Notes: a model not told the origin generated them from the letters alone. 53,926 nt of DNA from Deltaproteobacteria bacterium (GCA_030262715.1 JAJSZR010000003.1:1-53926), one strand, 5' to 3'. Shown: positions 1-14,724, counted from the stretch's first letter. A program made the numbers and translations.

Positions 1-1
1 T

Positions 2-1093
2 CTTCTCAGCTTAAGCGTAAATGCAGCCGGTGATGTAATATTCGAAGAAGGTCCCGGAAAGTCATGCCTTACTTCGCAGCATATCCTGCCGGTTCCCCGG
101 ATATCCCGGCCCTGTTTCACTGCTTATGCCGTATCATCAAGTAAGTTCAATCAGAAAAATGTTGGGGGCAAATCCATCAACCTGAGGCACCTGCAGGGCA
201 AGTTGCCGGAATGGATATGTATTCCCAATTCAGTGGCCATGCCGTTCGGGGTTTTTGAAAAGGTGCTTGCCGGGAAAAACAACAAGGAAATTGCCGGGCA
301 TTATAATGAACTGATACTGCGAATAGACAAAAAGGCCGAAAAGGTGGATGTAGGGGTACTGAGTGAACTCCATAAGACCATCCTGGGTCTCAAGGCACCG
401 GATGATCTGGTCTCTGGCCTTCATAGGGTGATGGATGAGGCAGGGCTACCGTGGCCCTCAAACTGGGAAGATGCCTGGACATGTATCAAGGGTGTATGGG
501 GCTCCAAATGGAACGAGAGGGCACATCTAAGCCGCAGGACAAGAGGGATCCCCCATGCGGATCTCTTCATGGCGGTGCTCATTCAAGAGGTAGTCGAGGC
601 CGATTACAGTTTTGTGATCCACACTGTTAATCCCTCTACGGGCAACCAGGATGAGATCTATGCCGAGGTGGTCCCGGGCCTTGGGGAGACATTGGTCGGC
701 AATTATCCCGGAAAGGCCTTCAGCTTCACCTGCAGGAAGGGAAAAGATGAACCACAGCTTCTGGCTTTCCCGAGCAAGAGCGTTGCCCTTTTCGGCAGCG
801 GCCTGATCTTCCGTTCGGATTCCAATGGGGAAGACCTGGCTGGTTATGCTGGTGCCGGCCTTTACGACAGCATAATGTTGGAGCCGTCAGTCAAGGTTTC
901 CCTGGATTACACACGCGAATTGCTCGTGTGGAATGAGGATTTTCGAAAGGACTTTTTAGTCACTGTAGCCAATATCGGCACAGTTATTGAGAAAGCCATG
1001 GGCTCTGCCCAGGATATTGAAGGCGCTTACTCGAAAGGTCAATATTACGTTGTACAGACACGCCCGCAGGTAGGGATTGAAGATGGTATTTAA
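2..1093 (+). CDS. alpha-glucan,water dikinase (GWD)-like protein, C-terminal ATP-grasp nucleotide-binding domain; 5'-partial (runs off the left edge)
   Basis: Frame 2 has no stop from nt 2 to the TTG the ORF track used at 203, so the gene is truncated by the window. Upstream translation ends '...YAVSSSKFNQKNVGGKSINLRHLQGKLPEW', the canonical start of the PPDK_N-type ATP-grasp domain. Later blocks are 'WGSKWNERAHLSRR', 'FRSDSNGEDLAGYAGAGLYDS' and 'DIEGAYSKGQYYVVQTRPQV'. The sequence is collinear with the C-terminus of plant GWD as I recall it. Confidence 0.85.
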   Translation, partial: LLSLSVNAAGDVIFEEGPGKSCLTSQHILPVPRISRPCFTAYAVSSSKFNQKNVGGKSINLRHLQGKLPEWICIPNSVAMPFGVFEKVLAGKNNKEIAGHYNELILRIDKKAEKVDVGVLSELHKTILGLKAPDDLVSGLHRVMDEAGLPWPSNWEDAWTCIKGVWGSKWNERAHLSRRTRGIPHADLFMAVLIQEVVEADYSFVIHTVNPSTGNQDEIYAEVVPGLGETLVGNYPGKAFSFTCRKGKDEPQLLAFPSKSVALFGSGLIFRSDSNGEDLAGYAGAGLYDSIMLEPSVKVSLDYTRELLVWNEDFRKDFLVTVANIGTVIEKAMGSAQDIEGAYSKGQYYVVQTRPQVGIEDGI

Positions 1094-1151
1094 TCATGAG
1101 GTGGCCATCCGTTTTTTGAAAAAGAAAAAAGTGTAAACCGATAAATGAAGG

Positions 1152-4100
1152 ATGCCCCAAATGCATATCCGGATCGGCAATCAGAGCGCCTTCTCGGCCT
1201 CAACAGTGATACAACCCTTTGAGTATGCTGTGGCTAACGGTTTTGATGCCTTTGAGTGGTTTCCCGACAAAAAGGAATCAGGGGAAGGCTGGGCAGAAAT
1301 CGATATTGCTGAAGAGCAACGTGCCTTTATTAAGAAAACCGCCCTTGTCCATGACATATGCCTCTCGGTCCATGCCCCCTGGCAGGCAAATCCTTTAAGG
1401 CCGGAAAGTCGTGACATCTTCCTCAAAAATATTGAGTTTGCACAGGATATAGGCGCATCGCTCATCAATATACACCTTTATACTGATGAAGGTATTGCCT
1501 CCTATGTCCAGGCCATTGTTCCCCTGATAAAAGATCTGGCAAAGGCCGGGATTAAGCTTTCTATAGAAAATACACCCATTACCGGACCGCAGGATTTTAA
1601 TGAGTTGTTCAGGCAGCTTCTAGACCTCGACTCAACAGATATCGCTCATGTGGGAATGTGCCTGGACCTGGGACACGCCAACCTGTGCGAGGCAACCCTT
1701 AATGACTACCTCAAATTCATCGACCTGCTCGATTCCAGGGTCCCTATCATCCATATTCACCTGCATGAAAACTATGGAGACTACGACAGCCACCTGCCCC
1801 TGTTCACCGGCCCTGCAGGAAAAAATGACTTAGGCATAAAGGGGTTTATAGAGCGGATGGAAAGGCGCAACTTTTCAGGATGCATTATCTTCGAGCAGTG
1901 GCCGGAACCACCCGGTCTGCTCAATGATGCCCGCAACAGGCTGCTTAAGATGATCGGTATTTCAGAAAGACCCGCTATTGAGCCTAGCATGGCCCCTGGG
2001 AATGACTTTGTTAATATGATTGCCGGGGCGGACCGGAAGTGCCGAAGCTGGAGGGAGAAACTCAGCTGGATTGATCACTTGCTCTCTGATGACACATTTG
2101 AGCTTAACACAGAGCAACTCATTTACATGGCGATCTATCTCCGTTTCATAGGGACAGGTAAAATACCCTGTACTGAGGATGGGCGGCACTTTCGCCCATC
2201 TCATCATGCAAGGATGGCTCATCATATAGAGGACCATCTGTACAAAATTACCACCCCGGAAAATGTATTTATCATCAGGAGAATTTATCCATGGCTTCCA
2301 TCCTTTACCAGCAGCTTTACCAGGAAGGAACCGCTCACACGAATACGGGATATTGCTCACAGAAACGATATCCCCAAGGAGCTCAAGAAGGAGATCAAGA
2401 ATACGCTCCAGAACAAGCTGCACCGGTGCGCCGGCCCTGAGGACCTTGCCACCTCGGCGGCCCTGCTTAAAAGGATAACGGCCCCGGGTGCCGGTTATTC
2501 ACCCGATTTCATAAAGGAGTTCAGGGAGTTCCACAAGGAACTCAAGGAGTTTTTCAATGCCCGCTCTTTAGAGGAACAACTTGAAGCAATGCTCAGGGAG
2601 GGTAGCGCTAATTCCCATACGCTCGAGTTAATTCACAAATTCCTTAAAGCCAAAGAAAAAGCACATACACCCAAGGAGATGGTAACCAGTTTCGAGCTCT
2701 TGACAATGCTTCGCAGTCAATTCAGTGAAAAACTTAAAGAGAAAACCAGTTCCGAAGGACAAAAGCTCCAATTGACCGATATCAAGCTGGAGGACTTTTC
2801 TTTTGTCCTCTTGAGCCAACTGATCAACCTCTTTGATGCCTTGGGGAAAGAAATAAGCTGGTCGCCGGCCCTGCGCTGCCTGGAGCTTGCAATTGAAAAC
2901 TTGCGCCTCAGCGGCTTTGATACCGGAGAATGCCAGGCAATAGAATCCGAACTGGAGGCTTGGAGCAAAGATTTCAAACCTCGAGACCGTGAGCACCTTA
3001 TTCGGCTCAAAGCCACAATTGATCGATGCCGACGGCTGGTAGAAGTCTACTGTAATAGAATCCTATCCCTGTTTCCTGAAAAGGTCGAAAGACTTGGACA
3101 GGCACTGGGTGTGGCAAGACACAAGATAAAGATCTTCTGTGAGGTGGATATTCGAAGCCACCTGGTCTTCCAGCTCTCAAAACTTATTGTTCTGCTTTTA
3201 AAAGGCATCCGGAGGCTCGCTGCCTTGCCCCCATGGGATGTGATCGTACCGGGCAAGACCTCCGGCCGCCTGGTAGAGGCCGCATGCCTTGATGATTTAC
3301 CAAGTCCTTTTGACAAAGCGATCGTAGTTCTTATGGAAAAGGTGGAAGGCGATGAGGAGATCCCTGCAGGGGTGGTCGGCCTGATTGTTGCCCATGGAAC
3401 ACCTCTTCTTTCACACCTTGCGGTTCGGGCCAGACAGGGGGAAATCGTATTTATAGTATGCGAAGATGCAGATCGCTATGCAGAATTAAAAAATTCCCTT
3501 GGAAAGCAGCTCGTCCTGGATGTCTCTGCTGAAGAGGTGAGTCTGGGATTTTTCTCCGGCCCTGAGCAAGAAGCAGTGACTGAGAGAGAAAGGGAGGTCC
3601 GGCGGAAACGGGTTTGGGTACCTGATGTGCTCCTGTCCCCTGATCGCAAATTGTTGCCGTTGGATCAGGTAAGACCTGCAAATGGAGGCAGCAAGGCAGC
3701 AGCAGTAAGGCGGCTTGAAGAACTGTCGCAAATTGAGGAGGCAGGCTTTGTGACACCCCCTGGAGTTGTAGTTCCTTTTGGTGTCATGGAAGAGTCACTA
3801 CATAAGGCATCGGTCCTTGAACAAGAGTACCGGATGTTGGTCAGCCGGTTGAATAAACTGCCACAAAGTGATTTCTTTGAGGCCTTAAGGAAATTACAAG
3901 GTATTATCAGGCAGCTTGACGTACCCGATGAGACCGTCTCGGGAGTGATGGAAAAATTTCCACGAAATGAACGGCTGATGGTACGTTCCAGTGCAAACTG
4001 CGAGGATCTGGAAGGCCTGTCTGGGGCCGGGCTTTACGATTCAATTGCCAATGTGTCGCCACCTGAGGTAGCCCAGGCAGTGAGCAAGGTCTGGTCATCA

Positions 4101-4595
4101 CTGTGGACCAGGCGCGCGGCATTGAGCAGGAGAAAGCTCGGTATCCCTCATGACAGGGCCCACATGGCTGTGCTCATCCAGCAGATGATCGTCCCGGAAA
4201 TTTCATTCGTTATGCATACTCTCAATCCTGTAGCTCAACACCTGGATGAAGTTTATGTGGAACTGGCAGCAGGCCTGGGTGAAGCGTTGACTTCCGGCAG
4301 GACGCCGGGTGTTCCTTATCGAATGGTCTGCAATAAGCATACAGGAAGGGTGCGTATGCTGGCCTTTGCGAGTTTCAGTTATGCAATATGGCCCGGCCCT
4401 TCGGGGAGTCTTATCCAAAAAACAGTGGATTATTCCGGAATAGGGCTGTCAAAAGATAAAGTTTTTAGAAACCGCTTGGGAGGACATTTGGGGGCAATCG
4501 GCCGATTTGTGGAAGATTCAGTGGGAATGCCTCAGGATATTGAGGGACTTGTTCTGGAAGACAAGATCTATCTGGTTCAATCACGTCCGCAGTAA
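1152..4595 (+). CDS. fusion protein: N-terminal xylose-isomerase-like TIM barrel (AP_endonuc_2 type) + GWD-like helical region + phosphohistidine swivel domain + C-terminal ATP-grasp nucleotide-binding domain
   Basis: 1147-aa ORF. aa ~1-270 carry TIM-barrel metal-site blocks ('SVHAPW', 'LSIENTP', 'CLDLGHAN', 'IHIHLHENYGDYDSHLP', 'IIFEQW'). The middle has 'RIRDIAHRNDIPKELKKEIKNTLQNKLHRCAGPEDL...FHKELKEFFNA', which I recognise as a GWD signature. The His domain is 'GLIVAHGTPLLSHLAVRARQGEIVFIVCED'. The C-terminus has 'GGSKAAAVRRLEEL', 'MVRSSANCEDLEGLSGAGLYDS' and 'DIEGLVLEDKIYLVQSRPQ'. The ATG at 1161 has better spacing from the GAAGGA at 1146-1151 and may be the true start. Confidence 0.85.
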   Translation: MPQMHIRIGNQSAFSASTVIQPFEYAVANGFDAFEWFPDKKESGEGWAEIDIAEEQRAFIKKTALVHDICLSVHAPWQANPLRPESRDIFLKNIEFAQDIGASLINIHLYTDEGIASYVQAIVPLIKDLAKAGIKLSIENTPITGPQDFNELFRQLLDLDSTDIAHVGMCLDLGHANLCEATLNDYLKFIDLLDSRVPIIHIHLHENYGDYDSHLPLFTGPAGKNDLGIKGFIERMERRNFSGCIIFEQWPEPPGLLNDARNRLLKMIGISERPAIEPSMAPGNDFVNMIAGADRKCRSWREKLSWIDHLLSDDTFELNTEQLIYMAIYLRFIGTGKIPCTEDGRHFRPSHHARMAHHIEDHLYKITTPENVFIIRRIYPWLPSFTSSFTRKEPLTRIRDIAHRNDIPKELKKEIKNTLQNKLHRCAGPEDLATSAALLKRITAPGAGYSPDFIKEFREFHKELKEFFNARSLEEQLEAMLREGSANSHTLELIHKFLKAKEKAHTPKEMVTSFELLTMLRSQFSEKLKEKTSSEGQKLQLTDIKLEDFSFVLLSQLINLFDALGKEISWSPALRCLELAIENLRLSGFDTGECQAIESELEAWSKDFKPRDREHLIRLKATIDRCRRLVEVYCNRILSLFPEKVERLGQALGVARHKIKIFCEVDIRSHLVFQLSKLIVLLLKGIRRLAALPPWDVIVPGKTSGRLVEAACLDDLPSPFDKAIVVLMEKVEGDEEIPAGVVGLIVAHGTPLLSHLAVRARQGEIVFIVCEDADRYAELKNSLGKQLVLDVSAEEVSLGFFSGPEQEAVTEREREVRRKRVWVPDVLLSPDRKLLPLDQVRPANGGSKAAAVRRLEELSQIEEAGFVTPPGVVVPFGVMEESLHKASVLEQEYRMLVSRLNKLPQSDFFEALRKLQGIIRQLDVPDETVSGVMEKFPRNERLMVRSSANCEDLEGLSGAGLYDSIANVSPPEVAQAVSKVWSSLWTRRAALSRRKLGIPHDRAHMAVLIQQMIVPEISFVMHTLNPVAQHLDEVYVELAAGLGEALTSGRTPGVPYRMVCNKHTGRVRMLAFASFSYAIWPGPSGSLIQKTVDYSGIGLSKDKVFRNRLGGHLGAIGRFVEDSVGMPQDIEGLVLEDKIYLVQSRPQ

Positions 4596-4610
4596 GGAGT
4601 GTTTTAAAAA

Positions 4611-4887
4611 AACCGTTCAGGGGTTCAAAGGGTCAAGTGACAAGAAAAAAATGAACATCGAACATCGAACGTCCAACATCGAATTTTGAATGGGAAAAGA
4701 TGAAGAAACAGACTTATGACCTGGAAGAAAGGCTACTTATTAAAAAATCTGAACTACTAAATGATATTCTAGAGGAAACAGAAATAGCCGTTGAATGTTC
4801 GGTATCGGATATTTGTTTTTCGTTCGATGTTGGACGTTCGATGTTCGATGTTCGACGTTCATCTTTTAATGTAACCTGTGAACGGTT
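4611..4887. mobile_element. intergenic inverted-repeat element (MITE/IVS-like) carrying a remnant of a four-helix-bundle (23S rRNA intervening-sequence protein family) gene
   Basis: Termini are AACCGTTCA (4611-4619) and its complement TGAACGGTT (4879-4887). The left arm 4651-4683 (ATGAACA TCGAACA TCGAACG TCCAACA TCGAA) is complementary to the right arm 4823-4862, which holds one extra TCGAACA heptamer. The interior encodes 'KKQTYDLEERLL...' (ORF 4700..4906), an N-terminal fragment typical of that family. Confidence 0.6.
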
Positions 4888-4902
4888 ACAAAAATATCAG
4901 AC

Positions 4903-5958
4903 ATGAAAAACAATAGTCCTTTCCCGTGCCCGCCGTTGCTTGCACTTTTTCAGAAAAGGATTGATGGCGATGACGCCCTTCTGCATTTGGCCAATTTACG
5001 CTTTAAAGAGGCAGGTCTTGGGACCGAATTTTATGCAACAACACCAGTGGAGCTGGACTGGCTGCTGGAATTCAAGCCCAGGCCTGAAACCCCTGCAGTG
5101 GCTCATTTGCGCAGAGATATAAATCTGTTTGAGGAAGAAGGCCGCAACCTGGTCATGGATTTTGCCACAAAATTCAAAGACCAGATCTTTGGGCTGGTCA
5201 TCCATGATCAAACCGAAATCACAACCCGTCTTGACGATTATTTGGCCGCATTGCAGGAGATAGAGTCAAGATCGAAAAAGGTCCCGGGAAGCCCTTATCT
5301 TTTTGTAGAATATGCCGCAGGCCTGGAACCTGATTTCTTTATTGAAATCTTTAAGGCGGTACGAGATCTTGAACATGTAAGCGCCTGTATTGATATAGGC
5401 CATATCGGCATATGGCAAACAAGATCTGCCTATTCACTCAACCATCCGGGAAAGGAGGTGTGCGCCATCACGCCGAATGATCCTGAACTGCCGGAGGTGA
5501 TCAGAGATGTCCAGAGTGCGGTTGATTCCGGATTAGACGCAGTGCTTCATGTAATTCGGGCCCTTGGCCGCTTAGAAAAACCATTGCATTTTCATTTGCA
5601 TGATGGACATCCGCTTTCCACCTTCAGTCCCTTTGGGATCTCTGACCACCTGAGTTTCCTGGTTGAAATTCCGATACCTTTTGAATACAAAGGCAGAAGA
5701 TCTCTTGATCCGATGTTCGGACCTTCAGGTCTTTCAAGGATAGTCACTGAATCATTGCAACTGCTGGGTCCGGATCGAGTTTCTTTTACACTTGAGATTC
5801 ATCCAACAGAAGGAAGGCTTCCTCTTGCTAATGCTTCTTACCTGTTTAATCACTGGAGAGACAAAACAAATGCGGAAAGGATGAACTATTGGCTGTCGAT
5901 TCTTGCTCAAAATCATAAACTGCTATTTGATATAGCCGTAAAAAGGATAGCGCTGTGA
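4903..5958 (+). CDS. xylose-isomerase-like TIM barrel protein (sugar phosphate isomerase/epimerase / AP_endonuc_2 superfamily), function unknown
   Basis: 351-aa ORF. Blocks 'FGLVIHDQ', 'LFVEYAAG', 'ACIDIGHIGIW' and 'LHFHLHDGHPLS...SDHLSF' parallel the metal-ligand blocks of the TIM-barrel domain in 1152..4595. Its stop overlaps the GTG start of the next gene (GTGA at 5955-5958). Confidence 0.55.
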   Translation: MKNNSPFPCPPLLALFQKRIDGDDALLHLANLRFKEAGLGTEFYATTPVELDWLLEFKPRPETPAVAHLRRDINLFEEEGRNLVMDFATKFKDQIFGLVIHDQTEITTRLDDYLAALQEIESRSKKVPGSPYLFVEYAAGLEPDFFIEIFKAVRDLEHVSACIDIGHIGIWQTRSAYSLNHPGKEVCAITPNDPELPEVIRDVQSAVDSGLDAVLHVIRALGRLEKPLHFHLHDGHPLSTFSPFGISDHLSFLVEIPIPFEYKGRRSLDPMFGPSGLSRIVTESLQLLGPDRVSFTLEIHPTEGRLPLANASYLFNHWRDKTNAERMNYWLSILAQNHKLLFDIAVKRIAL

Positions 5959-7259
5959 AAAAACCTGAAAAGATGATCATCTATAACCTGTTTCCCTTAT
6001 TGGCCGGAAAGTTCACAGACTGGGAAAGGCATTTATTGAGGGCATCTGAAATGGGCTTCAATTGGGTCTTTGTCAATCCCATTCAGCGTCCAGGTGAGTC
6101 GGGCAGCCTTTACTCAATAATGGATTATTATGATTTCAACCCTGTTTTAGTTGACCAAAAAAGTAAAAAAGCACCTCAGGAACAGGCAAAAGAGGCGATC
6201 AAGACCGCAAAAAAACTAGGTCTCAATGCAATGGTTGACCTGGTAATCAACCACTGTTCTGTAGATTCGGACCTGATTAAATCACACCCCGAATGGTTTC
6301 TATGGGAGTCCAGGGGTCACGTGGCCCATCCCTTCTGTGATGAAGACGGAAAAAAGGTGGTCTGGAAAGACCTGGCAAAATTCGATCACAGAGATACAAT
6401 GGATAAAGAGGGACTTTTTCAATACTTTCTCAATATAGTGAAATTCTTGATTGAATTGGGTTTTAGGGGATTTCGCTGTGACGCCGCTTATCAGGTCCCC
6501 AAAAGGCTGTGGGAAAGGCTCATTAAGGAGATAAAAAAGGGTCATCCTGAGATCGTCTTTTTTGCGGAGACACTCGGTTGCCCGTCAGACCAGACCAGAA
6601 GGACCGCCAGCGCCGGTTTTGATTATATATTCAATAGCTCCAAATGGTGGGATTTCAACAGCCCGTGGTTGATGGCACAATATGCCCTTACGCGAGAAGT
6701 TGTCCCTTCTATCAGCTTTCCTGAAAGCCACGATACTGTGAGACTCTGCGAGGAACTTCATGGCAACATCGAAGGGCTTAAACAACGCTATCTGTTTTCA
6801 GCCCTGTTTTCAGCGGGTGTCATGATGCCCATGGGATTTGAATTCGGTTTTTGTAAAAGGTTTCATGTGGTGAAAACCAGACCGGAAGATTGGGAAGAAA
6901 CAGACATTGATCTGGCCGCTTTCATTACTGAGGTCAACAAGTTGAAGTCGAATCAGGCAATCTTTCAGGAAGAGGCCCCTACAGAGATATTGTATGCCGG
7001 CAATCCAAATATCCTGCTCATGTGGAAGGCATCCATCAATGATCAAGAAGAGGCATTGCTGATTCTCAACAAGGACATTTATAACAAACAGCATTTTTAT
7101 GCGGAAAGCCTGCAGGAATTTATCCAGGCAGGAGCCCCGCTCAGTGATCTCTCTCCAGAATACCCAATGGAGTATATCCCGGTGCCATTTTCATACGATC
7201 TCCGGCCGGGACAAGGGATCGTACTGATCACTTCAAGAGATTTGATTCAGGATGATTGA
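5955..7259 (+). CDS. GH13 alpha-amylase-family catalytic-domain protein (GlgE-like sequence blocks)
   Basis: GH13 regions are present: I 'DLVINHCS', II 'GFRGFRCDAAYQVP', III 'VFFAETLG', IV 'SFPESHDT'. The N-terminal 'IYNLFPLLAG...MGFNWVFVNPIQRPGESGSLYS' and 'HPEWF' blocks resemble GlgE-type maltosyltransferases as I recall them. Confidence 0.8.
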   Translation: MKKPEKMIIYNLFPLLAGKFTDWERHLLRASEMGFNWVFVNPIQRPGESGSLYSIMDYYDFNPVLVDQKSKKAPQEQAKEAIKTAKKLGLNAMVDLVINHCSVDSDLIKSHPEWFLWESRGHVAHPFCDEDGKKVVWKDLAKFDHRDTMDKEGLFQYFLNIVKFLIELGFRGFRCDAAYQVPKRLWERLIKEIKKGHPEIVFFAETLGCPSDQTRRTASAGFDYIFNSSKWWDFNSPWLMAQYALTREVVPSISFPESHDTVRLCEELHGNIEGLKQRYLFSALFSAGVMMPMGFEFGFCKRFHVVKTRPEDWEETDIDLAAFITEVNKLKSNQAIFQEEAPTEILYAGNPNILLMWKASINDQEEALLILNKDIYNKQHFYAESLQEFIQAGAPLSDLSPEYPMEYIPVPFSYDLRPGQGIVLITSRDLIQDD

Positions 7260-7393
7260 ATCAATAGTAATTGAGTTTTCCCTGGATTTTTTGTAACCTT
7301 GGCCGGTGTGTCTTTATTCATTATGGTGGTTTTACACCGAGAGCTAAGGAGTTGTCCATATAAGCCAAGCAGTGGCTGGCGAAAGAGGGCGAA

Positions 7394-8122
7394 TTGATAA
7401 AGTCAATAGAAAGCAAAGACATCGAAAGGCCGAAATCCTACAATCCAGGATCTGAGAAACAGGAAAAAGCAAAACAATCAGATTTTGAAGCTTCCCAGGA
7501 TACCCAAGGACTCACCCGGGATTCCATAGATTTTCGCAACCTGTACGAAGAATACTGCGAAAGCCGGGTCGTTTTGCTTCCTGTGGAGCCCTACCTGATC
7601 CATGCCTACTGGGATGTTACCCATAACGACATCGAGAAGGCGAAACAGCGGCTGGGTGATGACTATAGAAAATCACAGGCCATCTTGAGATTCTATGATG
7701 TCACTAACATCATTTATGACGGTACAAATGCCCATGGTTTTTTCGACGTGGATATAGATCTTCAATCCCAAAACTGGTACGTAGATCTCTGGAGCCCGGA
7801 TAAATCATACTTTGTTGATTTAGGATTTAAGACCGGAGATGGTTTCTTCCTCCCGGTAACCCGGTCAAGTGTTGCCAGGACACCTTGTGCCTGGCCTGCC
7901 CCCAAAGCTGACGAACACTACATGTCCGTGGCAGAGGATGAAGAAGGCCTGTCAAAAATCGAAGTTCCTGAAAAACCTTTGCCTCAAAGCATTCAAGCTC
8001 GATATGAAAAACGAGTAGATTTTGATCTCACGGAAATGAGCGAGAAAGCATTCACACTTGGCATATCCTCAGAATTTATCTCGTCGACACAGGGAAAGAA
8101 CGATTCTGCTGACAGGCTTTGA
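7394..8122 (+). CDS. DUF4912 domain protein (usual partner of GH57 branching enzymes)
   Basis: 'VVLLPVEPYLIHAYWDV' is the characteristic DUF4912 opening. Its stop overlaps the start of the GH57 gene (8119-8122). Confidence 0.6.
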   Translation: MIKSIESKDIERPKSYNPGSEKQEKAKQSDFEASQDTQGLTRDSIDFRNLYEEYCESRVVLLPVEPYLIHAYWDVTHNDIEKAKQRLGDDYRKSQAILRFYDVTNIIYDGTNAHGFFDVDIDLQSQNWYVDLWSPDKSYFVDLGFKTGDGFFLPVTRSSVARTPCAWPAPKADEHYMSVAEDEEGLSKIEVPEKPLPQSIQARYEKRVDFDLTEMSEKAFTLGISSEFISSTQGKNDSADRL

Positions 8123-9705
8123 AGATGGAAAAAGGTTATTTAGCGATAGTCCTTCATGCACACCTCCCTTTTGTGAGGCACCCTGAACATGTGGATTCCC
8201 TGGAAGAAAACTGGGTTTTCGAAGCCATTACCGATACGTACATCCCTCTCCTTTCCGTACTGGATGGTCTTGTAGAAGATGGGATTGACTTTCGATTGAC
8301 CTTGTCAATCACACCCACTCTTGCCTCAATGTTCGCCGATCCGTTCTTGCAGTCCCGTTATCTGGACAGACTTGAACGACTGATAGAGCTGGGCAAGAAA
8401 GAAGTCAAACGAACAAGATACCACCACGAGTTTAATATACTGGCTCTGATGTATCACAGACGCCTTTTAAAAGTGCGTAAAGCATTCCTTAACCGTTATA
8501 ATCTGAACCTGGTTCAGGCCTTTAAACGCTTACAGGAGCTTGGGAAGGTAGAAATCATCGCCAGCGCTGCCACTCACGGATACCTTCCACTGCTTTCTGT
8601 TAATACATCGGCTGTTCGAGCACAAATTCGGGTCGGAATCAAAAATTATAAACAGGTATTCGGTCGAAATCCCAAGGGCTTCTGGTTACCCGAATGCGGC
8701 TATTATCCCGGAGTTGACGAGCTTCTCAGGCAAGATGGCATTCGCTACACTATTTTAGAGACTCACGGTATCACTCGTGCTGGACCAAGACCAAAATATG
8801 GTGTGTACGCACCGATCTATTGTCCATCAGGAGTAGCTGCCTTCGGGCGTGATCCTGAATCGTCCAAGCAGGTCTGGAGTTCAATAGAAGGATATCCAGG
8901 AGATTATGATTACCGGGAATTCTATCGTGACATCGCCTACGATCTGGATCTTGATTATATCAAGCCCTATATTCATAGAGACGGCATCCGAGTGGACACC
9001 GGCTTCAAGTACTTCCGCGTCACCGGCAAAAACAATCATAAAGAGGTCTATGTTCCCAAAAGGGCAAAGAGAAAAGCCGAGATCCACGCAGGGGATTTCA
9101 TGTTTAACAGGGAAAAACAGATTGAATATCTGGCTTCGGTCATGAATCGCAAGCCCATAATTGTGGCACCTTACGATGCTGAACTGTTCGGCCATTGGTG
9201 GTTTGAAGGCCCTGACTGGCTTAATCGCCTGATTCGTAAGATCGACTCGGAACAAAAAACGTTCCGGCTTATTACCCTTTCCGAATATCTGGAAGAATAC
9301 CCGATCAGTCAGGTTTCAGCACCTTCCACTTCCAGTTGGGGATACAAGGGCTTTCACGAAACCTGGCTCAATGGGACAAACGACTGGATCTACCGCCAAC
9401 TGCATCAGGGGGCGCAGTTTATGGAGAGGCTGGCAACGAATCATCCCACAGCCGAGGGCCTCACTCTGAGGGCGCTCAATCAAGCGGCAAGAGAGCTGCT
9501 GGTAGCACAGGCGAGTGACTGGGCCTTTATGATCAACTCGGGCGCTATGGCAGAGTATGGGACTCGACGGACAAAGACGCACCTCTTGCGACTGGGCAGG
9601 CTCATGAGAGAAATTGAAGACCGGAAGATAGATGAAGGCTGGCTTTCAATGATTGAGAGCCAGGATAACATTTTTCCACAGATTGATTACCGCTCTTATG
9701 CCTAA
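8119..9705 (+). CDS. GH57-family 1,4-alpha-glucan branching enzyme (GH57 N-domain + DUF1957 C-domain)
   Basis: 'GYLAIVLHAHLPFVRHPE', 'TPTLASM', 'HGYLPLL', 'GFWLPECGY' and 'PYDAELFGHWWFEG' are GH57 branching-enzyme signatures. Confidence 0.85.
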   Translation: MKMEKGYLAIVLHAHLPFVRHPEHVDSLEENWVFEAITDTYIPLLSVLDGLVEDGIDFRLTLSITPTLASMFADPFLQSRYLDRLERLIELGKKEVKRTRYHHEFNILALMYHRRLLKVRKAFLNRYNLNLVQAFKRLQELGKVEIIASAATHGYLPLLSVNTSAVRAQIRVGIKNYKQVFGRNPKGFWLPECGYYPGVDELLRQDGIRYTILETHGITRAGPRPKYGVYAPIYCPSGVAAFGRDPESSKQVWSSIEGYPGDYDYREFYRDIAYDLDLDYIKPYIHRDGIRVDTGFKYFRVTGKNNHKEVYVPKRAKRKAEIHAGDFMFNREKQIEYLASVMNRKPIIVAPYDAELFGHWWFEGPDWLNRLIRKIDSEQKTFRLITLSEYLEEYPISQVSAPSTSSWGYKGFHETWLNGTNDWIYRQLHQGAQFMERLATNHPTAEGLTLRALNQAARELLVAQASDWAFMINSGAMAEYGTRRTKTHLLRLGRLMREIEDRKIDEGWLSMIESQDNIFPQIDYRSYA

Positions 9706-9712
9706 ATTGAGC

Positions 9713-9740
9713 AATTAGCTGTTAGCCATTAGCGTTTAGC
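9713..9740. repeat. 4 x 7-bp periodic tract (AATTAGC TGTTAGC CATTAGC GTTTAGC), solo arm-like sequence
   Basis: Read directly. It lies 8 nt after the GH57 stop, between the GH57 gene and glgA. It has the same 7-bp periodicity as the arms of the two inverted-repeat elements, but no complementary partner lies nearby. Confidence 0.6.
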
Positions 9741-9826
9741 TTTGGAAAGAGGGACTTTCGTTTTATGAAGGATGCCGAATTCATCAATGATCGAGTGGTA
9801 ATATCCGGAAACAGAGGTCTAATGGC

Positions 9827-11293
9827 ATGTATGTCGTGATGATTACTCCAGAGTGCGCTCCGGTTGCGAAAGTTGGGGGTTTGGGCGACGTTGTTCAGGG
9901 TCTTTCCCATGAGCTCGCAATACGGGGGAATACTGTAGAGATTATCCTCCCTAAATACGATTGCATGCGGTACGATCTAATTTTCGGTCTCCATAAGACA
10001 TACTCTGATCTCAGGGTCCCTTACCATGATCAACATTTTTATTGCGATGTATATTTTGGTTTTGTGGATGGGCTAAAATGCTTCTTTATTGAATCCCACT
10101 CTTTTAAGAATTTCTTCAATCGGGGCATATTTTACGGACATCATGATGATCCTGAACGTTTTGCCTTTTTTTGCCGGGCAGCATTGGAGTTTATGCTAAA
10201 GACGAACAAGCATCCTGAAATTATCCATTGCCATGATTGGCAGACCGGACTTGTGCCGGTACTTCTGTTTGATATGTATAAATATTTGGGAATGACCCAC
10301 CCCAGGGTCTGCTATACCTTGCACAATCTTAAACATCAGGGTGTCACAGGGGAACACATACTCAGGCAGGTCGGCCTGAATCCTGCCAAGTATATCACTC
10401 CGGACCGGCTTCAGGATAACTTTAACCACAGTGCTATCAACTTCATGAAGGGAGGAATTGTCTATTCTAACTTTGTGACAACTGTTTCTCCCCGATATGC
10501 CAGGGAGATAAAAAATTCAGACCTTGGCTTTGGGCTCCAGCATACCCTTCATGTGCATAGCATTAAATTTGGAGGGGTCTTGAACGGAATTGATTACAAT
10601 GTATGGAATCCTGAAATCGATCCATATATATCGTGTCGGTATACAATTGATAGCATTAATGATAAATACAAAAATAAAGAGGCCCTCCGTAATAGACTAT
10701 GGCTAAGACACGACTTCAAACCGATTGTCTCTGTGATAGGTCGATTAGATCATCAAAAAGGTGTTGATTTAATACGGCATGGTATTTTTTATTCTTTGGC
10801 AAACGGTTGCCAGTTTGTCCTGTTAGGGTCGAGTCCTGAACCAGCTACCAATAATGATTTTTGGGGGCTAAAGCACTATTTGAATGATAACCCGGACTGC
10901 CACCTTGAAATCTCATACAATGAGGAATTAGCCCATCTGATTTATGCAGGTGCCGACATGATTCTCATACCAAGCGCATTTGAACCGTGCGGCCTGACAC
11001 AGATGATCGCCATGAAATGCGGAACAGTTCCCATTGTTCGAAATACCGGTGGATTGGCAGACACAGTCTTTGACGCAGATTATGCCCAAAAACCATATCA
11101 TGAACGTAATGGCTATGTGTTTAATGATTTTGATAATGAAGGCCTCGAGTCTGCTCTGAAACGGGCTATAGGCCTGTGGTATATCTATCCCAAATATTTT
11201 AGGGAACTGATGATTAATGGGATGCGATATGACTATTCCTGGAACCATCCTGCAGGACATTATCTAAATATTTACAATTATATCAGGGAGTAA
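9827..11293 (+). CDS. glgA: glycogen/starch synthase (GT5)
   Basis: The N-terminal 'ECAPVAKVGGLGDVV' (KxGGL motif), 'HCHDWQTGL' and 'IPSAFEPCGLTQM' are canonical GlgA blocks. Confidence 0.9.
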   Translation: MYVVMITPECAPVAKVGGLGDVVQGLSHELAIRGNTVEIILPKYDCMRYDLIFGLHKTYSDLRVPYHDQHFYCDVYFGFVDGLKCFFIESHSFKNFFNRGIFYGHHDDPERFAFFCRAALEFMLKTNKHPEIIHCHDWQTGLVPVLLFDMYKYLGMTHPRVCYTLHNLKHQGVTGEHILRQVGLNPAKYITPDRLQDNFNHSAINFMKGGIVYSNFVTTVSPRYAREIKNSDLGFGLQHTLHVHSIKFGGVLNGIDYNVWNPEIDPYISCRYTIDSINDKYKNKEALRNRLWLRHDFKPIVSVIGRLDHQKGVDLIRHGIFYSLANGCQFVLLGSSPEPATNNDFWGLKHYLNDNPDCHLEISYNEELAHLIYAGADMILIPSAFEPCGLTQMIAMKCGTVPIVRNTGGLADTVFDADYAQKPYHERNGYVFNDFDNEGLESALKRAIGLWYIYPKYFRELMINGMRYDYSWNHPAGHYLNIYNYIRE

Positions 11294-11302
11294 AAAATAG
11301 GG

Positions 11303-12856
11303 CTATCCCTTCATCATCTCATCCACGGAGGGGAATCTGGTAAGATCGGTATGGGGAAGAAAAAGGGCCCCGGTTAGCTGGTTCATAAAATCTTTGCGCA
11401 CATTCATCTCGAGATAAGTTATCTTGTCGCAGATCTCCTCTACCTCTTTTCTGGCTTTTCTCCACGTAAGGGCCTCAATCGCCCCGGTACCTGCGGCATT
11501 TCTCAGGCCCTCAAAGCGCTCAAGAGGCACATCAGGCAACATCCCAATTATTATGGCCTTTTTGGGATCTATATAATTGCCAAAGGCACCCGCAACATAA
11601 AACCTCTCGATATCCTCAAACCCGATACCAACGCTCTGGATTACCACGTTCAGTATAGTGTGCATGGCCCCTTTTGAACGAATCAGGTTTTTTATATCGC
11701 TCTGACTGATATAGACCGGCTCCCCATGGCCTGTCTCATGAGGACCTGCCACAACATAGACCCATTCCCCACCTATCCGTTGCATCCTGGCACTATCCCG
11801 ATCCACCACAAGCTTTCCGGTTGGGTCCACCAGTCCTGCAACAAACATGGCTGCCAGGAGATCTATTATTCCTGAACCACACAATCCCTCCGGGGCCTTG
11901 CCGTCTATGGTACGATATCTGACTGTCAAAAGAGTTCGGTCTATGTCCAACCGGTCTATGGCCCCTGGCTTTGCCATCATACCACAGGAGGAAATTCCCC
12001 CTTCAAGTGCCGGGCCGGCCGCCCCTGCACAGGCCACGAGCCAGTCCCTGTTTCCCAGCACTACCTCTGCATTGGTGCCAACATCCACGAGCATGGAGAT
12101 CTCCTCCTTGAGGTGCATGCCAGAGGCCAGGATGCCTGCCAGAAGATCACCGCCAAAGTAACTCCCCACGTTTGGAAAACAATAGAGCCATGCCTGAGGA
12201 TGGACATTTATTCCTAATTCCCAGGGCCGGATCAGATCAAAGCGGTTAACCACGGGAATGTATGGTTCCCGGCAGATATGGCCTGGATCAAGACCTAAAA
12301 AGAAGTGGCACATAGTGGTGTTGCCGGCCAATGCAATAAAGGATATATCCTCCGGGCTCATGCCTCCTCCTGCCGTAATCTCCTGTACAGAGGAATTAAA
12401 AAGGCCAACGACCTCAGACTGTAGTGTCTCCAATCCATTGCCTTGCCCAGCAAAGAGGATCCTTTCCAGGATGTCCTCACCGTGGACCCTTTGCGGGTTG
12501 GGTTTTGATAGAGTAGAAACGGTCTCGCCTGAACCAAGGTCTACCAGGTAAAATACCACGGTGGTGCTTCCAAGGTCCACAGCCAGTCCGTAAGGCGACA
12601 GAGATTTGCTTTTAACGCTGACCTGGGCGACCTCCCAGCCGGAAGGTCCATCCAGCACCAATGTTTGCACCTTGTAGTCAGAGGAGGGGAGAATGTCAGG
12701 CAGGCATTTGCAGATCTTTAAAGGGAACAGAGGTGGTTGCCCCAGGATAGGCTCCAAGGCCGCTCTTACACGTGACTCGTGACTGCGGTTGTCGCTAAGA
12801 GACGGGCTGGGGAGATCCAGGCTGATTGCGCGGCATACAGGGTCAAAACGGTCCAT
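11303..12856 (-). CDS. ASKHA-fold ATPase, DUF4445 / RACo-like (corrinoid-protein reductive-activase family) without an obvious N-terminal ferredoxin domain
   Basis: 'LAVDLGSTTVVFYLVDL', 'IALAGNTTMCHFFLGLDP', 'LVDVGTNAEVVLGN' and 'CAGAAGPALEGG' are DUF4445/ASKHA phosphate-binding motifs. Confidence 0.7.
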   Translation of the reverse strand: MDRFDPVCRAISLDLPSPSLSDNRSHESRVRAALEPILGQPPLFPLKICKCLPDILPSSDYKVQTLVLDGPSGWEVAQVSVKSKSLSPYGLAVDLGSTTVVFYLVDLGSGETVSTLSKPNPQRVHGEDILERILFAGQGNGLETLQSEVVGLFNSSVQEITAGGGMSPEDISFIALAGNTTMCHFFLGLDPGHICREPYIPVVNRFDLIRPWELGINVHPQAWLYCFPNVGSYFGGDLLAGILASGMHLKEEISMLVDVGTNAEVVLGNRDWLVACAGAAGPALEGGISSCGMMAKPGAIDRLDIDRTLLTVRYRTIDGKAPEGLCGSGIIDLLAAMFVAGLVDPTGKLVVDRDSARMQRIGGEWVYVVAGPHETGHGEPVYISQSDIKNLIRSKGAMHTILNVVIQSVGIGFEDIERFYVAGAFGNYIDPKKAIIIGMLPDVPLERFEGLRNAAGTGAIEALTWRKARKEVEEICDKITYLEMNVRKDFMNQLTGALFLPHTDLTRFPSVDEMMKG

Positions 12857-12874
12857 TCCAATTTATAAAACGTC

Positions 12875-13174
12875 CTACTGATCTCTTTCCCGTTCGGTCT
12901 GGTCCGGAGTCACATCTATAATAAGTGAGCTTGCGTCCAGATCACTATTGGTATCACTACGCCTGGTACATTCTTTCTCAAACTGCCGCATGACCTTGCG
13001 AACACGCCATGCCATGTAGCTGGCTGCAATAGCAAAGACTACCACAGCGCCCAAAAACAGCGGCAGGGCCAGAAAAAAGGCGGCCACGGCAAGCAGTCCC
13101 AACCCCAATAGGGTCAGTGGAGAGACATTAGTGGATTTGTAGTATATTCTGCGTTGTGTCATTTTAGTCCTCAT
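12875..13174 (-). CDS. small membrane protein (two predicted TM helices)
   Basis: 99-aa ORF with the hydrophobic stretch 'LTLLGLGLLAVAAFFLALPLFLGAVVVFAIAASYMAW'. Its start overlaps the PilZ gene stop by 1 nt (TAATG). Confidence 0.4.
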   Translation of the reverse strand: MRTKMTQRRIYYKSTNVSPLTLLGLGLLAVAAFFLALPLFLGAVVVFAIAASYMAWRVRKVMRQFEKECTRRSDTNSDLDASSLIIDVTPDQTERERDQ

Positions 13175-13503
13175 TAGTTTTCGTTCAGGATATCCTTCAA
13201 TGAAAAAAATGAGTCGAGATCCATCTCCTCAAACCGGATTCCCATCCCGCTGTTATCCGTGCGAATTACACGTCCTTTAAAAAAGAGCACGAGCTTCGAA
13301 TTGGTATGTGTAAGATGTAATTCCATTTCACATGAAGTGCCGACAGAAAGCTTGATATCACTATAACAGTAAATTCCTTTCAAACTAATATCTTTTGTCT
13401 GATCGCAACGTATCTCCTTAGCATCCTGTTTAAGAGACCAAAGGCATGCCACGGCCTTGAAAGGGACCCGAAAATTTTTGCGTTGCTCATTATCTGCTAT
13501 CAT
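13174..13503 (-). CDS. PilZ domain protein (putative c-di-GMP receptor)
   Basis: It has both PilZ signature motifs: RxxxR ('RKNFR') and D/NxSxxG ('DISLKG'). Confidence 0.65.
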   Translation of the reverse strand: MIADNEQRKNFRVPFKAVACLWSLKQDAKEIRCDQTKDISLKGIYCYSDIKLSVGTSCEMELHLTHTNSKLVLFFKGRVIRTDNSGMGIRFEEMDLDSFFSLKDILNEN

Positions 13504-13515
13504 AATACTGTTTCC

Positions 13516-14724
13516 TCAAGATTTTTCCACCATGGACCTGATCTTAAGACGCAGGCCCTGAAGCCTTATGAACCCTTCGGCATCTGCCTGGCTGTAAACA
13601 TCATCCTCCTCGAAGGTAGCAAACTCCGGCCGGTATAAGGATTTTTCCGCTTTTCTTCCCACAACCTGGCAATTTCCTTTATAGATCTTGAGTCGAACCC
13701 TTCCGTTCACATTGACTTGGGATTCGTCTATGAGCTTCTGGATCAGCTCCCGTTCGGGTGAAAACCAGAAACCGTAATATATCAGTTCTGAATAACGTGA
13801 AACCAGGCTATCCCGCAAGTGCATAACCTCCCTGTCCATGGTTATGGACTCAAGGGCCATGTGGGCTGCACGAAGAATAGAACCGCCAGGCGTCTCATAG
13901 ACCCCTCTTGATTTCATCCCGACAAAACGGTTCTCAACCAGATCCACTCGACCGATCCCGTTATGGGCACCTATGAGGTTCAGCCTTGACAAGAATTCTG
14001 CTGCAGAAAGCAGCTCACCGTCAAGGGCCACCGGATCTCCCTGCTCAAAATCGATCTCCACATAAGATGGTTCATCAGGGGCATTTTCAGGACTCCTTGT
14101 CCATATAAACATGTCTTCATCGGGTTCTGCCCACGGGTCTTCCAGAATCCCGCCCTCATAACTTATGTGTAAGAGGTTTGCGTCCATACTGTAAGGTTTT
14201 GCCTTTGTGACCGGTACTGGTATATTATGAATTTTGGCGAAGTCTACGAGCTTCTTCCTGGAATTGAGGTCCCAAATGCGCCAGGGGGCTATGATCTTGA
14301 GGTCAGGACCAAGGGCCATGAAGGAAAGCTCGAAACGGACCTGGTCATTTCCCTTACCAGTGGCCCCGTGGCTGACTGCGCTGGCCCCAACTTCCCTGGC
14401 AACACGTACCTGTTCTCTGGCAATAAGGGGCCTTGCGATGGATGTACCCAGCAGATAAGTACCCTCATAAATGGCATTTGCCCTGAACATGGGAAAGACA
14501 AAGTCCTGAACAAACTCCTCTTTGAGGTCCCTTATCAGCACCTCCGAGGCCCCTGTATCCAGGGCCTTCTGCTTCACAGCTTTCCAGTTTTCTTCCTGAC
14601 CTATATCTGCAGAATAAGCCACTACAGGACAGTGATAGATCTCCTGTAGCCATTTGAGAATGACGGATGTGTCGAGTCCGCCTGAGTAGGCAAGGACTAT
14701 TTTGTTTATTTTTTGTCTCTGCAT
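13516..14724 (-). CDS. argG: argininosuccinate synthase
   Basis: '[14 protein letters not shown]', '[15 protein letters not shown]' and '[15 protein letters not shown]' are canonical ArgG blocks. Confidence 0.95.

Follow-up and report, generated by a model that had tools for sequence, protein, structure and literature searches.

The 53,926 nucleotides of Deltaproteobacteria bacterium analysed in this work (GCA_030262715.1 JAJSZR010000003.1:1-53926, hereafter the window) raise the question of what two TIM barrels may do in a gene row coding for two dikinases of the plant starch-phosphorylating type. One of the barrels (barrel 1) is the N-terminal domain of a 1147-aa protein encoded by a single open reading frame (ORF) on the + strand, at 1152-4595, in which it is joined by a 13-aa linker to a complete dikinase of the alpha-glucan, water dikinase or phosphoglucan, water dikinase (GWD/PWD) type, here called dikinase 2. 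The other is a stand-alone protein of 351 aa (P351), encoded at 4903-5958 (+). By analogy with endonuclease IV, both barrels are tentatively proposed to be metal-dependent phosphoesterases acting with the dikinases, most likely as glucan phosphatases, a reading to which slightly less than an even chance is assigned. The fold of the barrels, their candidate metal site, the spread of the fusion and the genes among which it resides are considered in turn, and the proposal is then weighed against its rivals.

Barrel 1 spans aa 1-269 of the fusion protein (1152-1958, +). The original prediction, made from the DNA alone, held that the first ~270 aa of the 1147-aa dikinase form a barrel of the AP_endonuc_2 type, and both sequence and structure searches agree. 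AP_endonuc_2 (PF01261) matches aa 23-256 with 87.6 bits against a Pfam gathering cut-off of 31.1, and the AlphaFold2 model of aa 1-283 is a regular eight-stranded (beta/alpha)8 barrel with a predicted local distance difference test (pLDDT) score of 90.2, which drops below 50 from aa 274, in the linker. According to Foldseek, the best match of the model in the PDB is MJ1311 (3wqo; template modelling (TM) score 0.71-0.74), and comparable scores are reached with the AP endonuclease of African swine fever virus (ASFV), which belongs to the endonuclease IV family (0.67), and with the ketose 3-epimerases specific for D-psicose and D-tagatose (0.62-0.68). The motifs IENTP, DLGHAN, HLHEN and FEQW, singled out at the outset as metal-ligand blocks, are all found in the translation. 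Only two non-dikinase NCBIfam families match the fusion protein, the CbiR phosphodiesterase (1.2e-6) and deoxyribonuclease IV (2.4e-4), and barrel 1 is far below the cut-offs of both equivalogs, scoring 28.2 bits against 105 and 20.8 bits against 244, respectively; its genomic context, moreover, is one of alpha-glucan genes. Judged by these scores, the barrels fall outside the Nfo and CbiR families. Copies of the barrel-1 subfamily may also occur in larger proteins: P0436, a 5557-aa entry of the representative library, hosts two, at aa 3128-3333 and 3768-3981 (31-36% identity).

The active site of endonuclease IV provides the most informative term of comparison. In the E. coli enzyme (Nfo) three zinc ions are held by H69, H109, E145, D179, H182, H216, D229, H231 and E261, and the identity of these nine residues was confirmed in the E. 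coli nfo sequence. Counterparts in barrel 1 were sought by three mappings, i.e. HMMER alignment of the family profile to the E. coli and M. tuberculosis endonucleases IV, MAFFT alignment with Nfo added to the family, and a mixed-family MAFFT L-INS-i alignment. An earlier MAFFT run misplaced Nfo H69 and E261, and these two positions were taken from the alignment with M. tuberculosis endonuclease IV and from the strands of the model. The residues of barrel 1 aligned to the Nfo nine are H74, H108, E139, D172, H175, H203, D212, H214 and E248. Each falls where a predicted beta-strand ends C-terminally, or in the loop behind it. No exception to any of the nine, nor to H201, H205 and E206, was met among 55 barrels from several phyla, which share 51-92% identity. 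Far from being lost on proper alignment, the ligands are thus all in register, and the blocks described as intact-looking make up the full endonuclease IV set. Barrel 1 therefore appears to own the nine ligands which define the trinuclear centre of endonuclease IV, and these residues are regarded as a candidate metal site.

The complement of ligands also sets barrel 1 apart from the sugar-converting members of the superfamily. Between three and five of the nine positions have no equivalent in the E. coli isomerases and epimerases of the mixed-family alignment. UlaE, YcjR and Hyi have in common only the core positions corresponding to E145, D179, H216 (Q in Hyi) and E261. None of the three has counterparts of H109, D229 and H231, and some also lack those of H69 and H182. 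Barrel 1 has the E-D-H-E core and, in addition, all five extra ligands, and in this departs from the single-metal site of the ketose 3-epimerase and sugar isomerase branch.

P351 had been assigned to the same fold class, an assignment which holds, though the match is not visible to Pfam. The protein has no Pfam or NCBIfam match at E <= 0.01, PF01261 included, nor any match in the PDB, whether searched by single sequence or by a 40-sequence profile, and its homologues, ~2000 in number, are all annotated as hypothetical. The fold was resolved by profile-profile comparison and structure prediction only. The AlphaFold model (pLDDT 90.8) is a TIM barrel, to which a long helical insertion and a C-terminal helix are added. 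Foldseek matches are weak (TM 0.39-0.46), and the top ones are barrels of the xylose isomerase and endonuclease IV kind, namely D-psicose epimerase, which ranks best, DgpB-DgpC, and the endonucleases IV of ASFV, M. tuberculosis and T. maritima. Comparison of the P351 and barrel-1 families by hhalign yielded a probability of 93.8% (E 1.8e-7) over 167 columns, and paired H68, H101, E136, D164 and H167 of P351 with H74, H108, E139, D172 and H175 of barrel 1. Profile and model together identify P351 as a very divergent barrel of the AP_endonuc_2 superfamily. Its candidate ligands, H68, H101, E136, D164, H167, H231, D248, H249 and E298, are conserved in 80-81 of 81 homologues, the D248-H249 pair standing in place of the D-x-H of endonuclease IV. 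As far as alignments can tell, the barrels do carry the site which hydrolyses a phosphoester in every characterised case of this superfamily. A fold and a candidate active site can in this way be given to a family so far known as hypothetical, and with them a pathway context.

The partners of the barrels are less enigmatic. Dikinase 1, a GWD1-like alpha-glucan, water dikinase, is represented in the window by its C-terminal part (2-1093, +); the 5' end is cut off by the window start, and the frame is open from position 2. The fragment matches PPDK_N (Pfam, 3.3e-25), includes the ATP-grasp, and is 92% identical to the end of a 1007-aa ORF, itself truncated by the contig end, in the related locus L011. 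Full-length orthologues feature two Ig_N_CWD1 stretches (4.8e-48), GWD1_pHisD and PPDK_N. Dikinase 2 (1998-4595, +) comprises a helical central region extending to about aa 690 of the fusion protein, a phosphohistidine swivel domain at aa 695-798 (GWD1_pHisD, PF22973, 3.1e-25) and an ATP-grasp at aa 846-1147 (PPDK_N, PF01326, 5e-37). The phosphohistidine domain contains the motif LLSHLAVRAR, the histidine of which we take to be catalytic from what is known of plant GWD. Over its entire length dikinase 2 is 57-59% identical to the stand-alone 866-873-aa dikinases of the loci L007 and L008, and its central region shares 24-26% identity with the one in dikinase 1. No solved plant GWD was matched in the PDB, where the best entries are 5hv6 and 8a8e, both labelled phosphoenolpyruvate synthase. 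With a phosphohistidine domain and a C-terminal ATP-grasp, dikinase 2 has the domains expected of GWD/PWD enzymes and is a predicted dikinase; sequence relatedness marks it as a paralogue of dikinase 1 devoid of the GWD1 Ig-like N-terminal domains. Pfam reveals no CBM45, GWD1 Ig-like or CBM20 domain in the 1147-aa protein. The early remark that the barrel sits where plant GWD carries carbohydrate-binding modules is loosely right as to position; in origin, the barrel is the product of the gene lying behind dikinase 1, fused onto dikinase 2.

Is the fusion genuine, and how common is it? One genome per GTDB species was scanned with the 351-aa family as query; 294 species were positive, and 80 loci were kept for comparison. 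Enough upstream sequence is available in 57 of them. Barrel and dikinase 2 are both found in 53 of these 57, and in 48 of the 53 they are in frame with no intervening stop. Fused loci are spread over at least six phyla, namely Thermodesulfobacteriota, Nitrospirota, Planctomycetota (Scalindua), Verrucomicrobiota, Acidobacteriota and Chloroflexota; fusion ORFs of 1174, 1223 and 1169 aa were checked in a Desulfobacterales, a "Deltaproteobacteria" and a Verrucomicrobiae genome, respectively. The best 120 full-length matches, 1130-1530 aa long, all combine PF01261, PF22973 and PF01326. Among the best 70 clusters at 50% identity 37 are fused, all with the dikinase C-terminus, and 7 are probably truncated fusions, next to 23 of stand-alone size and 3 fragments. 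The junction itself can be traced at the sequence level. In the unfused loci L006, L007 and L008 the barrel gene ends with ...EIIG and a stop codon, and the dikinase begins with ...GEDFINKI; in the window the linker ISERPAIEPSMAP (1959-1997, +) takes the place of that stop codon and of the spacer, ~40 nt long, between the two unfused genes. The junction is read through in the independent assemblies L001-L005 and in 48 GTDB genomes, and the idea of an assembly or frameshift artefact is ruled out by read-through in independent assemblies and many genomes. A split ORF was met in L005 (Nitrospiraceae, GCA_011682485, ~1800-1900), where the fusion is broken into 453 + 671 aa by a frameshift at GYSPDFIKEF. 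The frameshift falls at aa ~450, distant from the junction, which is open, and reflects either a sequencing error or a pseudogene; it also accounts for an odd 453-aa "TIM barrel protein" in NCBI.

The suspicion of a mis-joined ORF can accordingly be dismissed, and so can the notion that the architecture is unusual: fusion is widespread, and is the majority state in both full-length and representative searches. It first looked rare because a short-query search favours short proteins. A search with the 283-aa domain returned mostly 268-300-aa matches and had suggested a rare, lineage-specific event, a conclusion overturned by the genome, full-length and representative searches. The word-index search with the 283-aa domain listed nothing longer than 464 aa, though hundreds of ~1150-aa fusions hold the domain at equal or higher identity; queries of domain size can hide multidomain architectures. 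The statement that no characterised enzyme has this architecture stands as far as the literature searched is concerned, in which no TIM-barrel/dikinase fusion, bacterial glucan phosphatase or comparable bacterial GWD-type system was found. Databases hold the architecture in abundance, filed as "phosphoglucan, water dikinase" or "TIM barrel protein"; the window adds one further member to what is a widespread, uncharacterised architecture.

The arrangement of the genes around the fusion is informative as well. The core order barrel-dikinase 2-P351 is found in 53 of 57 loci, and in 46 of 66 P351 is followed downstream by a GH13 gene at a distance of 600 nt or less. All loci lie among alpha-glucan genes (GH13, DUF4912, GH57 branching enzyme, GlgA), and no unrelated pathway is consistently linked to the orthologues in the loci compared; the possibility that they serve other pathways, contemplated at the outset, finds no echo in these neighbourhoods, where dikinases and alpha-glucan enzymes consistently adjoin. 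In three long Nitrospirota contigs no component is fused, and the genes run dikinase 1, barrel, dikinase 2, ~350-aa protein and GH13. Where barrels are encoded by stand-alone genes these are still found directly after dikinase 1, which they overlap by 8 nt in L211 and L212. L211 (GCA_034189385, Thermodesulfobacteriota, 3403-13561) is a reduced arrangement, and includes dikinase 1 (1201 aa), a barrel (271 aa), GH13, DUF4912, GH57 and GlgA, without dikinase 2 and without the 351-aa protein, which suggests that a single dikinase with a single barrel is the elementary unit. In verrucomicrobial loci GlgA is found together with barrel-dikinase 2 and the 351-aa protein. Cultured carriers include "Desulfobacterota bacterium M19" (L070); in Luteolibacter marinus NBU1238 (L080) P351 adjoins the C-terminus of a dikinase, on a contig that stops short of the place where a barrel would be expected. 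Further fusions are on record. Triple fusions, in which barrel, dikinase 2 and P351 form one protein of ~1490-1530 aa, make up about a dozen clusters from Thermodesulfovibrionales (P0284, P0313), and in P0210 P351 is joined to GH13. On the simplest view, the module consists of two tandem dikinase-barrel pairs followed by GH13, the barrel of the first pair being usually welded to the dikinase of the second.

In Nitrospirota genomes that encode barrel and dikinase 2 separately, selfish genes are often found, either in the gap between the two or just past the barrel (L006, 11132-11392; L007, 10907-11514; L213, 8647-13193). They encode a GIY-YIG protein, a PIN/VapB toxin-antitoxin pair, and an IS21-type transposase with IstB. 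Their presence hints that some of the unfused states are secondary disruptions.

How the parts might work together can be outlined as follows. The dikinases would phosphorylate a storage alpha-glucan, glycogen or a starch-like polymer, as plant GWD and PWD do. Phosphorylation would loosen the polymer, which GH13, be it a hydrolase or a transferase, would degrade. The barrels would hydrolyse the phosphate esters made by the dikinases, either on the polymer or on released oligosaccharides, thus clearing phosphates that block degradation and letting GH13 and the other glucan enzymes proceed; the two barrels may differ in positional or substrate preference. Hydrolysis would entail cleavage of a sugar-O-PO3 monoester, the sugar alkoxide being stabilised by metal, in a way close to the 3'-phosphatase reaction of endonuclease IV. 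Endonuclease IV also strips 3'-phosphate monoesters from deoxyribose, which are chemically near to the phosphates at C3 or C6 of glucose. It is on account of the nine-ligand counterparts, and of the sugar-O-phosphate hydrolysis carried out by such a cluster, that the barrels are proposed to be phosphoesterases. Two dikinases and two barrels fit the idea of writing and erasing in one operon put forward in the original prediction, and the functional link is made stronger by the occurrence elsewhere of barrel-dikinase-barrel and barrel-GH13 fusions.

Several observations weigh against the phosphatase proposal. The closest solved relative, MJ1311, is a protein without known function. The fold is shared with isomerases, epimerases, dehydratases and lyases, and the TM scores of 3-epimerases to barrel 1 are nearly as good as those of the best matches. 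The P351 site is drawn from mixed sources, since H101 rests on hhalign and E298 on AlphaFold2 strands, and MAFFT misplaced both. A writer and an eraser on the same chain would set up a futile ATP cycle, unless their positional specificities differ. Finally, the contigs L001-L004, which come from four samples and are 91-97% identical in DNA to the window over the main blocks aligned to 1-8997, carry clean deletions corresponding to 110-703, 2055-2783 and 2854-5939 of the window. Most of both dikinases and all of P351 are gone, and an intact 308-aa barrel ORF is retained directly upstream of GH13. Either the phosphorylation module is decaying in these genomes, or the barrel has a use of its own.

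The rival readings draw in part on these same observations. The barrels may be isomerases, epimerases, dehydratases or lyases, in keeping with their database annotation, which modify the phosphorylated glucosyl unit or released sugar phosphates, for instance by phosphate elimination or epimerisation, and leave the ester unhydrolysed. PF01261 is dominated by such enzymes, the E-D-H-E core they use is present, and both the similarity of barrel 1 to the D-psicose and D-tagatose 3-epimerases and the ranking of D-psicose epimerase as best match of P351 go in this direction. Against this, five further residues of barrel 1 (H74, H108, H175, D212 and H214), which correspond to ligands of the two extra metals in endonuclease IV, are invariant, and in the loci compared no conserved neighbouring oxidoreductase is there to supply a keto-sugar substrate. 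A role in sugar conversion is hence considered unlikely, if worth keeping in mind. The covalent bond between barrel and dikinase in most lineages invites a different thought, namely that barrel 1 serves dikinase 2 as its phosphoryl-acceptor catalytic domain, where the phosphohistidine would pass its phosphate on to the substrate, in a manner analogous to the non-homologous PEP/pyruvate-binding TIM barrel of PPDK and PEP synthase, and that the acceptor is perhaps not an ordinary glucan hydroxyl. It is general knowledge that a metal-containing TIM barrel does this job in PPDK-type enzymes, and a metal cluster which activates a nucleophile could serve phosphoryl transfer as well as hydrolysis. 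Yet the barrel is a separate gene in many genomes, and in L211 it accompanies dikinase 1 alone, which has the complete domain set of plant GWD1. Plant GWD1 works without such a barrel. In addition, dikinase 2 has a central region of its own, homologous to that of dikinase 1, and an acceptor role would leave the second barrel, and its fusion to GH13, unexplained. An acceptor domain looks, on these grounds, quite improbable.

A phosphoesterase may also be at work on something else. Candidate substrates are a phosphodiester, such as glucan-phosphate-X or a cyclic phosphate, soluble phospho-oligosaccharides or hexose phosphates alone, or the phosphohistidine of the dikinase, which would be reset for regulatory purposes. 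The proven hydrolases of the superfamily are all diesterases (endonuclease IV; CbiR, PMC7733943). The nine-ligand site is equally accounted for by this reading, and the tight linkage to the dikinases would suit regulation too. Against it, GWD-type dikinases are generally known to make monoesters, a barrel hydrolysing the phosphohistidine of its own dikinase would turn the latter into an ATPase, and the conserved link with GH13, as the P351-GH13 fusion, points to the polymer or its fragments; the chances of another substrate are accordingly rated as slim. Lastly, the fusion could be an artefact, or the barrel a catalytically dead binding module installed in place of carbohydrate-binding domains. 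The almost exclusive recovery of 268-300-aa proteins with the 283-aa query and the split ORF of L005 may be quoted in favour of an artefact, but fusion prevails in full-length and unbiased searches, and the L005 junction is open. A dead module, in turn, would not need candidate catalytic residues that are all invariant across phyla. Neither version is deemed credible to any serious extent. The proposal that the barrels are phosphoesterases, most likely directed at glucan phosphates, is retained in what follows.

The reversible phosphorylation of glucans lies at the heart of plant starch breakdown, as of human Lafora disease, and is regarded as a eukaryotic invention, in which dual-specificity phosphatases (DSPs) act as erasers. 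The system described here resembles that of plants, made up of GWD1/PWD and SEX4/LSF2 (laforin in animals), in several ways. Two paralogous GWD-type dikinases with phosphohistidine and C-terminal ATP-grasp domains are present in either case, the N-terminal Ig-like domains of plant GWD1 recur in the dikinase-1 orthologues, glucan-degrading and glucan-synthesising genes adjoin, and two candidate phosphoesterases match two dikinases. Differences are marked as well. The candidate erasers are metallo-TIM barrels, in contrast to the cysteine-dependent DSPs (Cx5R) SEX4, LSF2 and laforin, so that the analogy is functional only, and Pfam detects neither a DSP domain nor CBM20 or CBM48 in the operon proteins. 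The bacterial components, moreover, are gathered in one operon, are often covalently fused, and belong to an anaerobic, glycogen-storing host.

Each of the better known barrels is related to those of the window in part only. Endonuclease IV has the same fold, all nine of its ligands have invariant counterparts, and its chemistry is the hydrolysis of a sugar-O-phosphate; identity is nonetheless ~15%, and the context here is glucan metabolism, not DNA repair. MJ1311 of Methanocaldococcus jannaschii, labelled "D-tagatose 3-epimerase-like protein", is retrieved by profile at E 2.3e-12 and has the HxHxH(D/E)N...DxH block in common with barrel 1, but is a stand-alone archaeal protein with ~19% identity and no known association with dikinases. 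Its nine endonuclease IV ligands are reportedly conserved, while the DNA groove is lacking. The PPDK and PEP synthase enzymes are alike in combining an ATP-grasp with a swivelling phosphohistidine, and PPDK too has a metal-binding TIM barrel; the order of the domains is reversed, however, the barrel is of another family (PEP-utilizers_C), and the acceptor is different. CbiR, a proven phosphodiesterase from the superfamily, does not act on DNA, and its His/Asp/Glu metal ligands are conserved (PMC7733943). Of the non-dikinase NCBIfam families it matches the fusion protein best, below the cut-off, and in contrast to the barrels of the window works on cobamides, in cobamide loci.

The dikinase half of a plant-type system is found in hundreds of bacterial species, accompanied by two conserved metalloenzymes of another fold to which it is often fused. 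Should the barrels be erasers, they would represent a new class of carbohydrate-dephosphorylating enzymes, bacterial glycogen would be regulated by phosphate, and compact "write/erase" enzymes made of a single polypeptide would become available for starch engineering. If the barrels turn out to be acceptor domains or sugar-modifying enzymes, new chemistry would still be attached to a GWD-type dikinase. A broader claim, that glucan phosphatases of a new, non-DSP class exist in the form of endonuclease IV-like metallo-TIM barrels, and that many anaerobic bacteria thereby have a complete plant-like cycle, is possible, though on the whole doubtful. Were it true, the carriers, which include Desulfobacterota, Nitrospirota, anammox Planctomycetota and Verrucomicrobiota, would cycle phosphate on their storage polysaccharide by means of two writer/eraser pairs, often within one protein of 1150-1500 aa. 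GWD1-type dikinases with Ig-like domains would be firmly bacterial, which bears on the origin of starch mobilisation in plants.

In the window, the + strand from the first nucleotide to 11.3 kb is occupied by a single operon-like row of genes, as defined by ORF, Pfam and NCBIfam analyses. The nearest genomes are Thermodesulfobacteriota metagenome-assembled genomes, including a Seep-SRB2 bin, at ~90% amino-acid identity. The start of the fusion ORF deserves a comment. The sequence GAAGGA (1147-1152) abuts the ATG at 1152, but is located 8 nt before the ATG at 1161, which is for this reason the likelier start; the protein would probably begin with MHIRIGNQ... and be 3 residues shorter. At the other end of the module, the stop codon of P351 and the GTG start of the GH13 gene share 4 nt (GTGA, 5955-5958), and AAGGA is found 8 nt upstream of the overlapping start. 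Overlap and AAGGA make the translational coupling of the two genes, asserted in the original prediction, plausible. The GH13 gene (5955-7259, +) encodes a 434-aa enzyme of the alpha-amylase family (Pfam hDGE_amylase 2.5e-24, Alpha-amylase 3.3e-9), whose nearest PDB sequences are the small alpha-amylases 4gkl and 3dhu, followed by GlgE. Pfam and NCBIfam identify the next genes as DUF4912 (7394-8122, +), a GH57 branching enzyme (8119-9705, +) and the glycogen synthase GlgA (9827-11293, +), which are found downstream in many related loci, too.

The 292 nt at 4606-4897, to which no strand is assigned, part dikinase 2 from the P351 gene and are specific to the window, being missing in the close relatives L005, L011 and L013. 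They include perfect 31-nt inverted arms, at 4653-4683 and 4823-4853 (GAACATCGAACATCGAACGTCCAACATCGAA), made of 7-nt repeats, and the RNA is predicted to fold into a very stable hairpin (-96.7 kcal/mol, z = -8). An Rfam search with the insertion gave a chance-level match only. At least 120 metagenome contigs contain the exact 31-mer arm, for the most part in inverted pairs separated by 50-530 nt, and full copies found elsewhere enclose a gene for a 121-aa 23S rRNA-intervening-sequence protein (PF05635). The copy in the window has nothing left of this gene but the initial 13 codons and a portion of its C-terminal end, and looks like the internally deleted, decayed remnant of a small mobile hairpin cassette, which resides inside the operon but is no part of the enzyme system.

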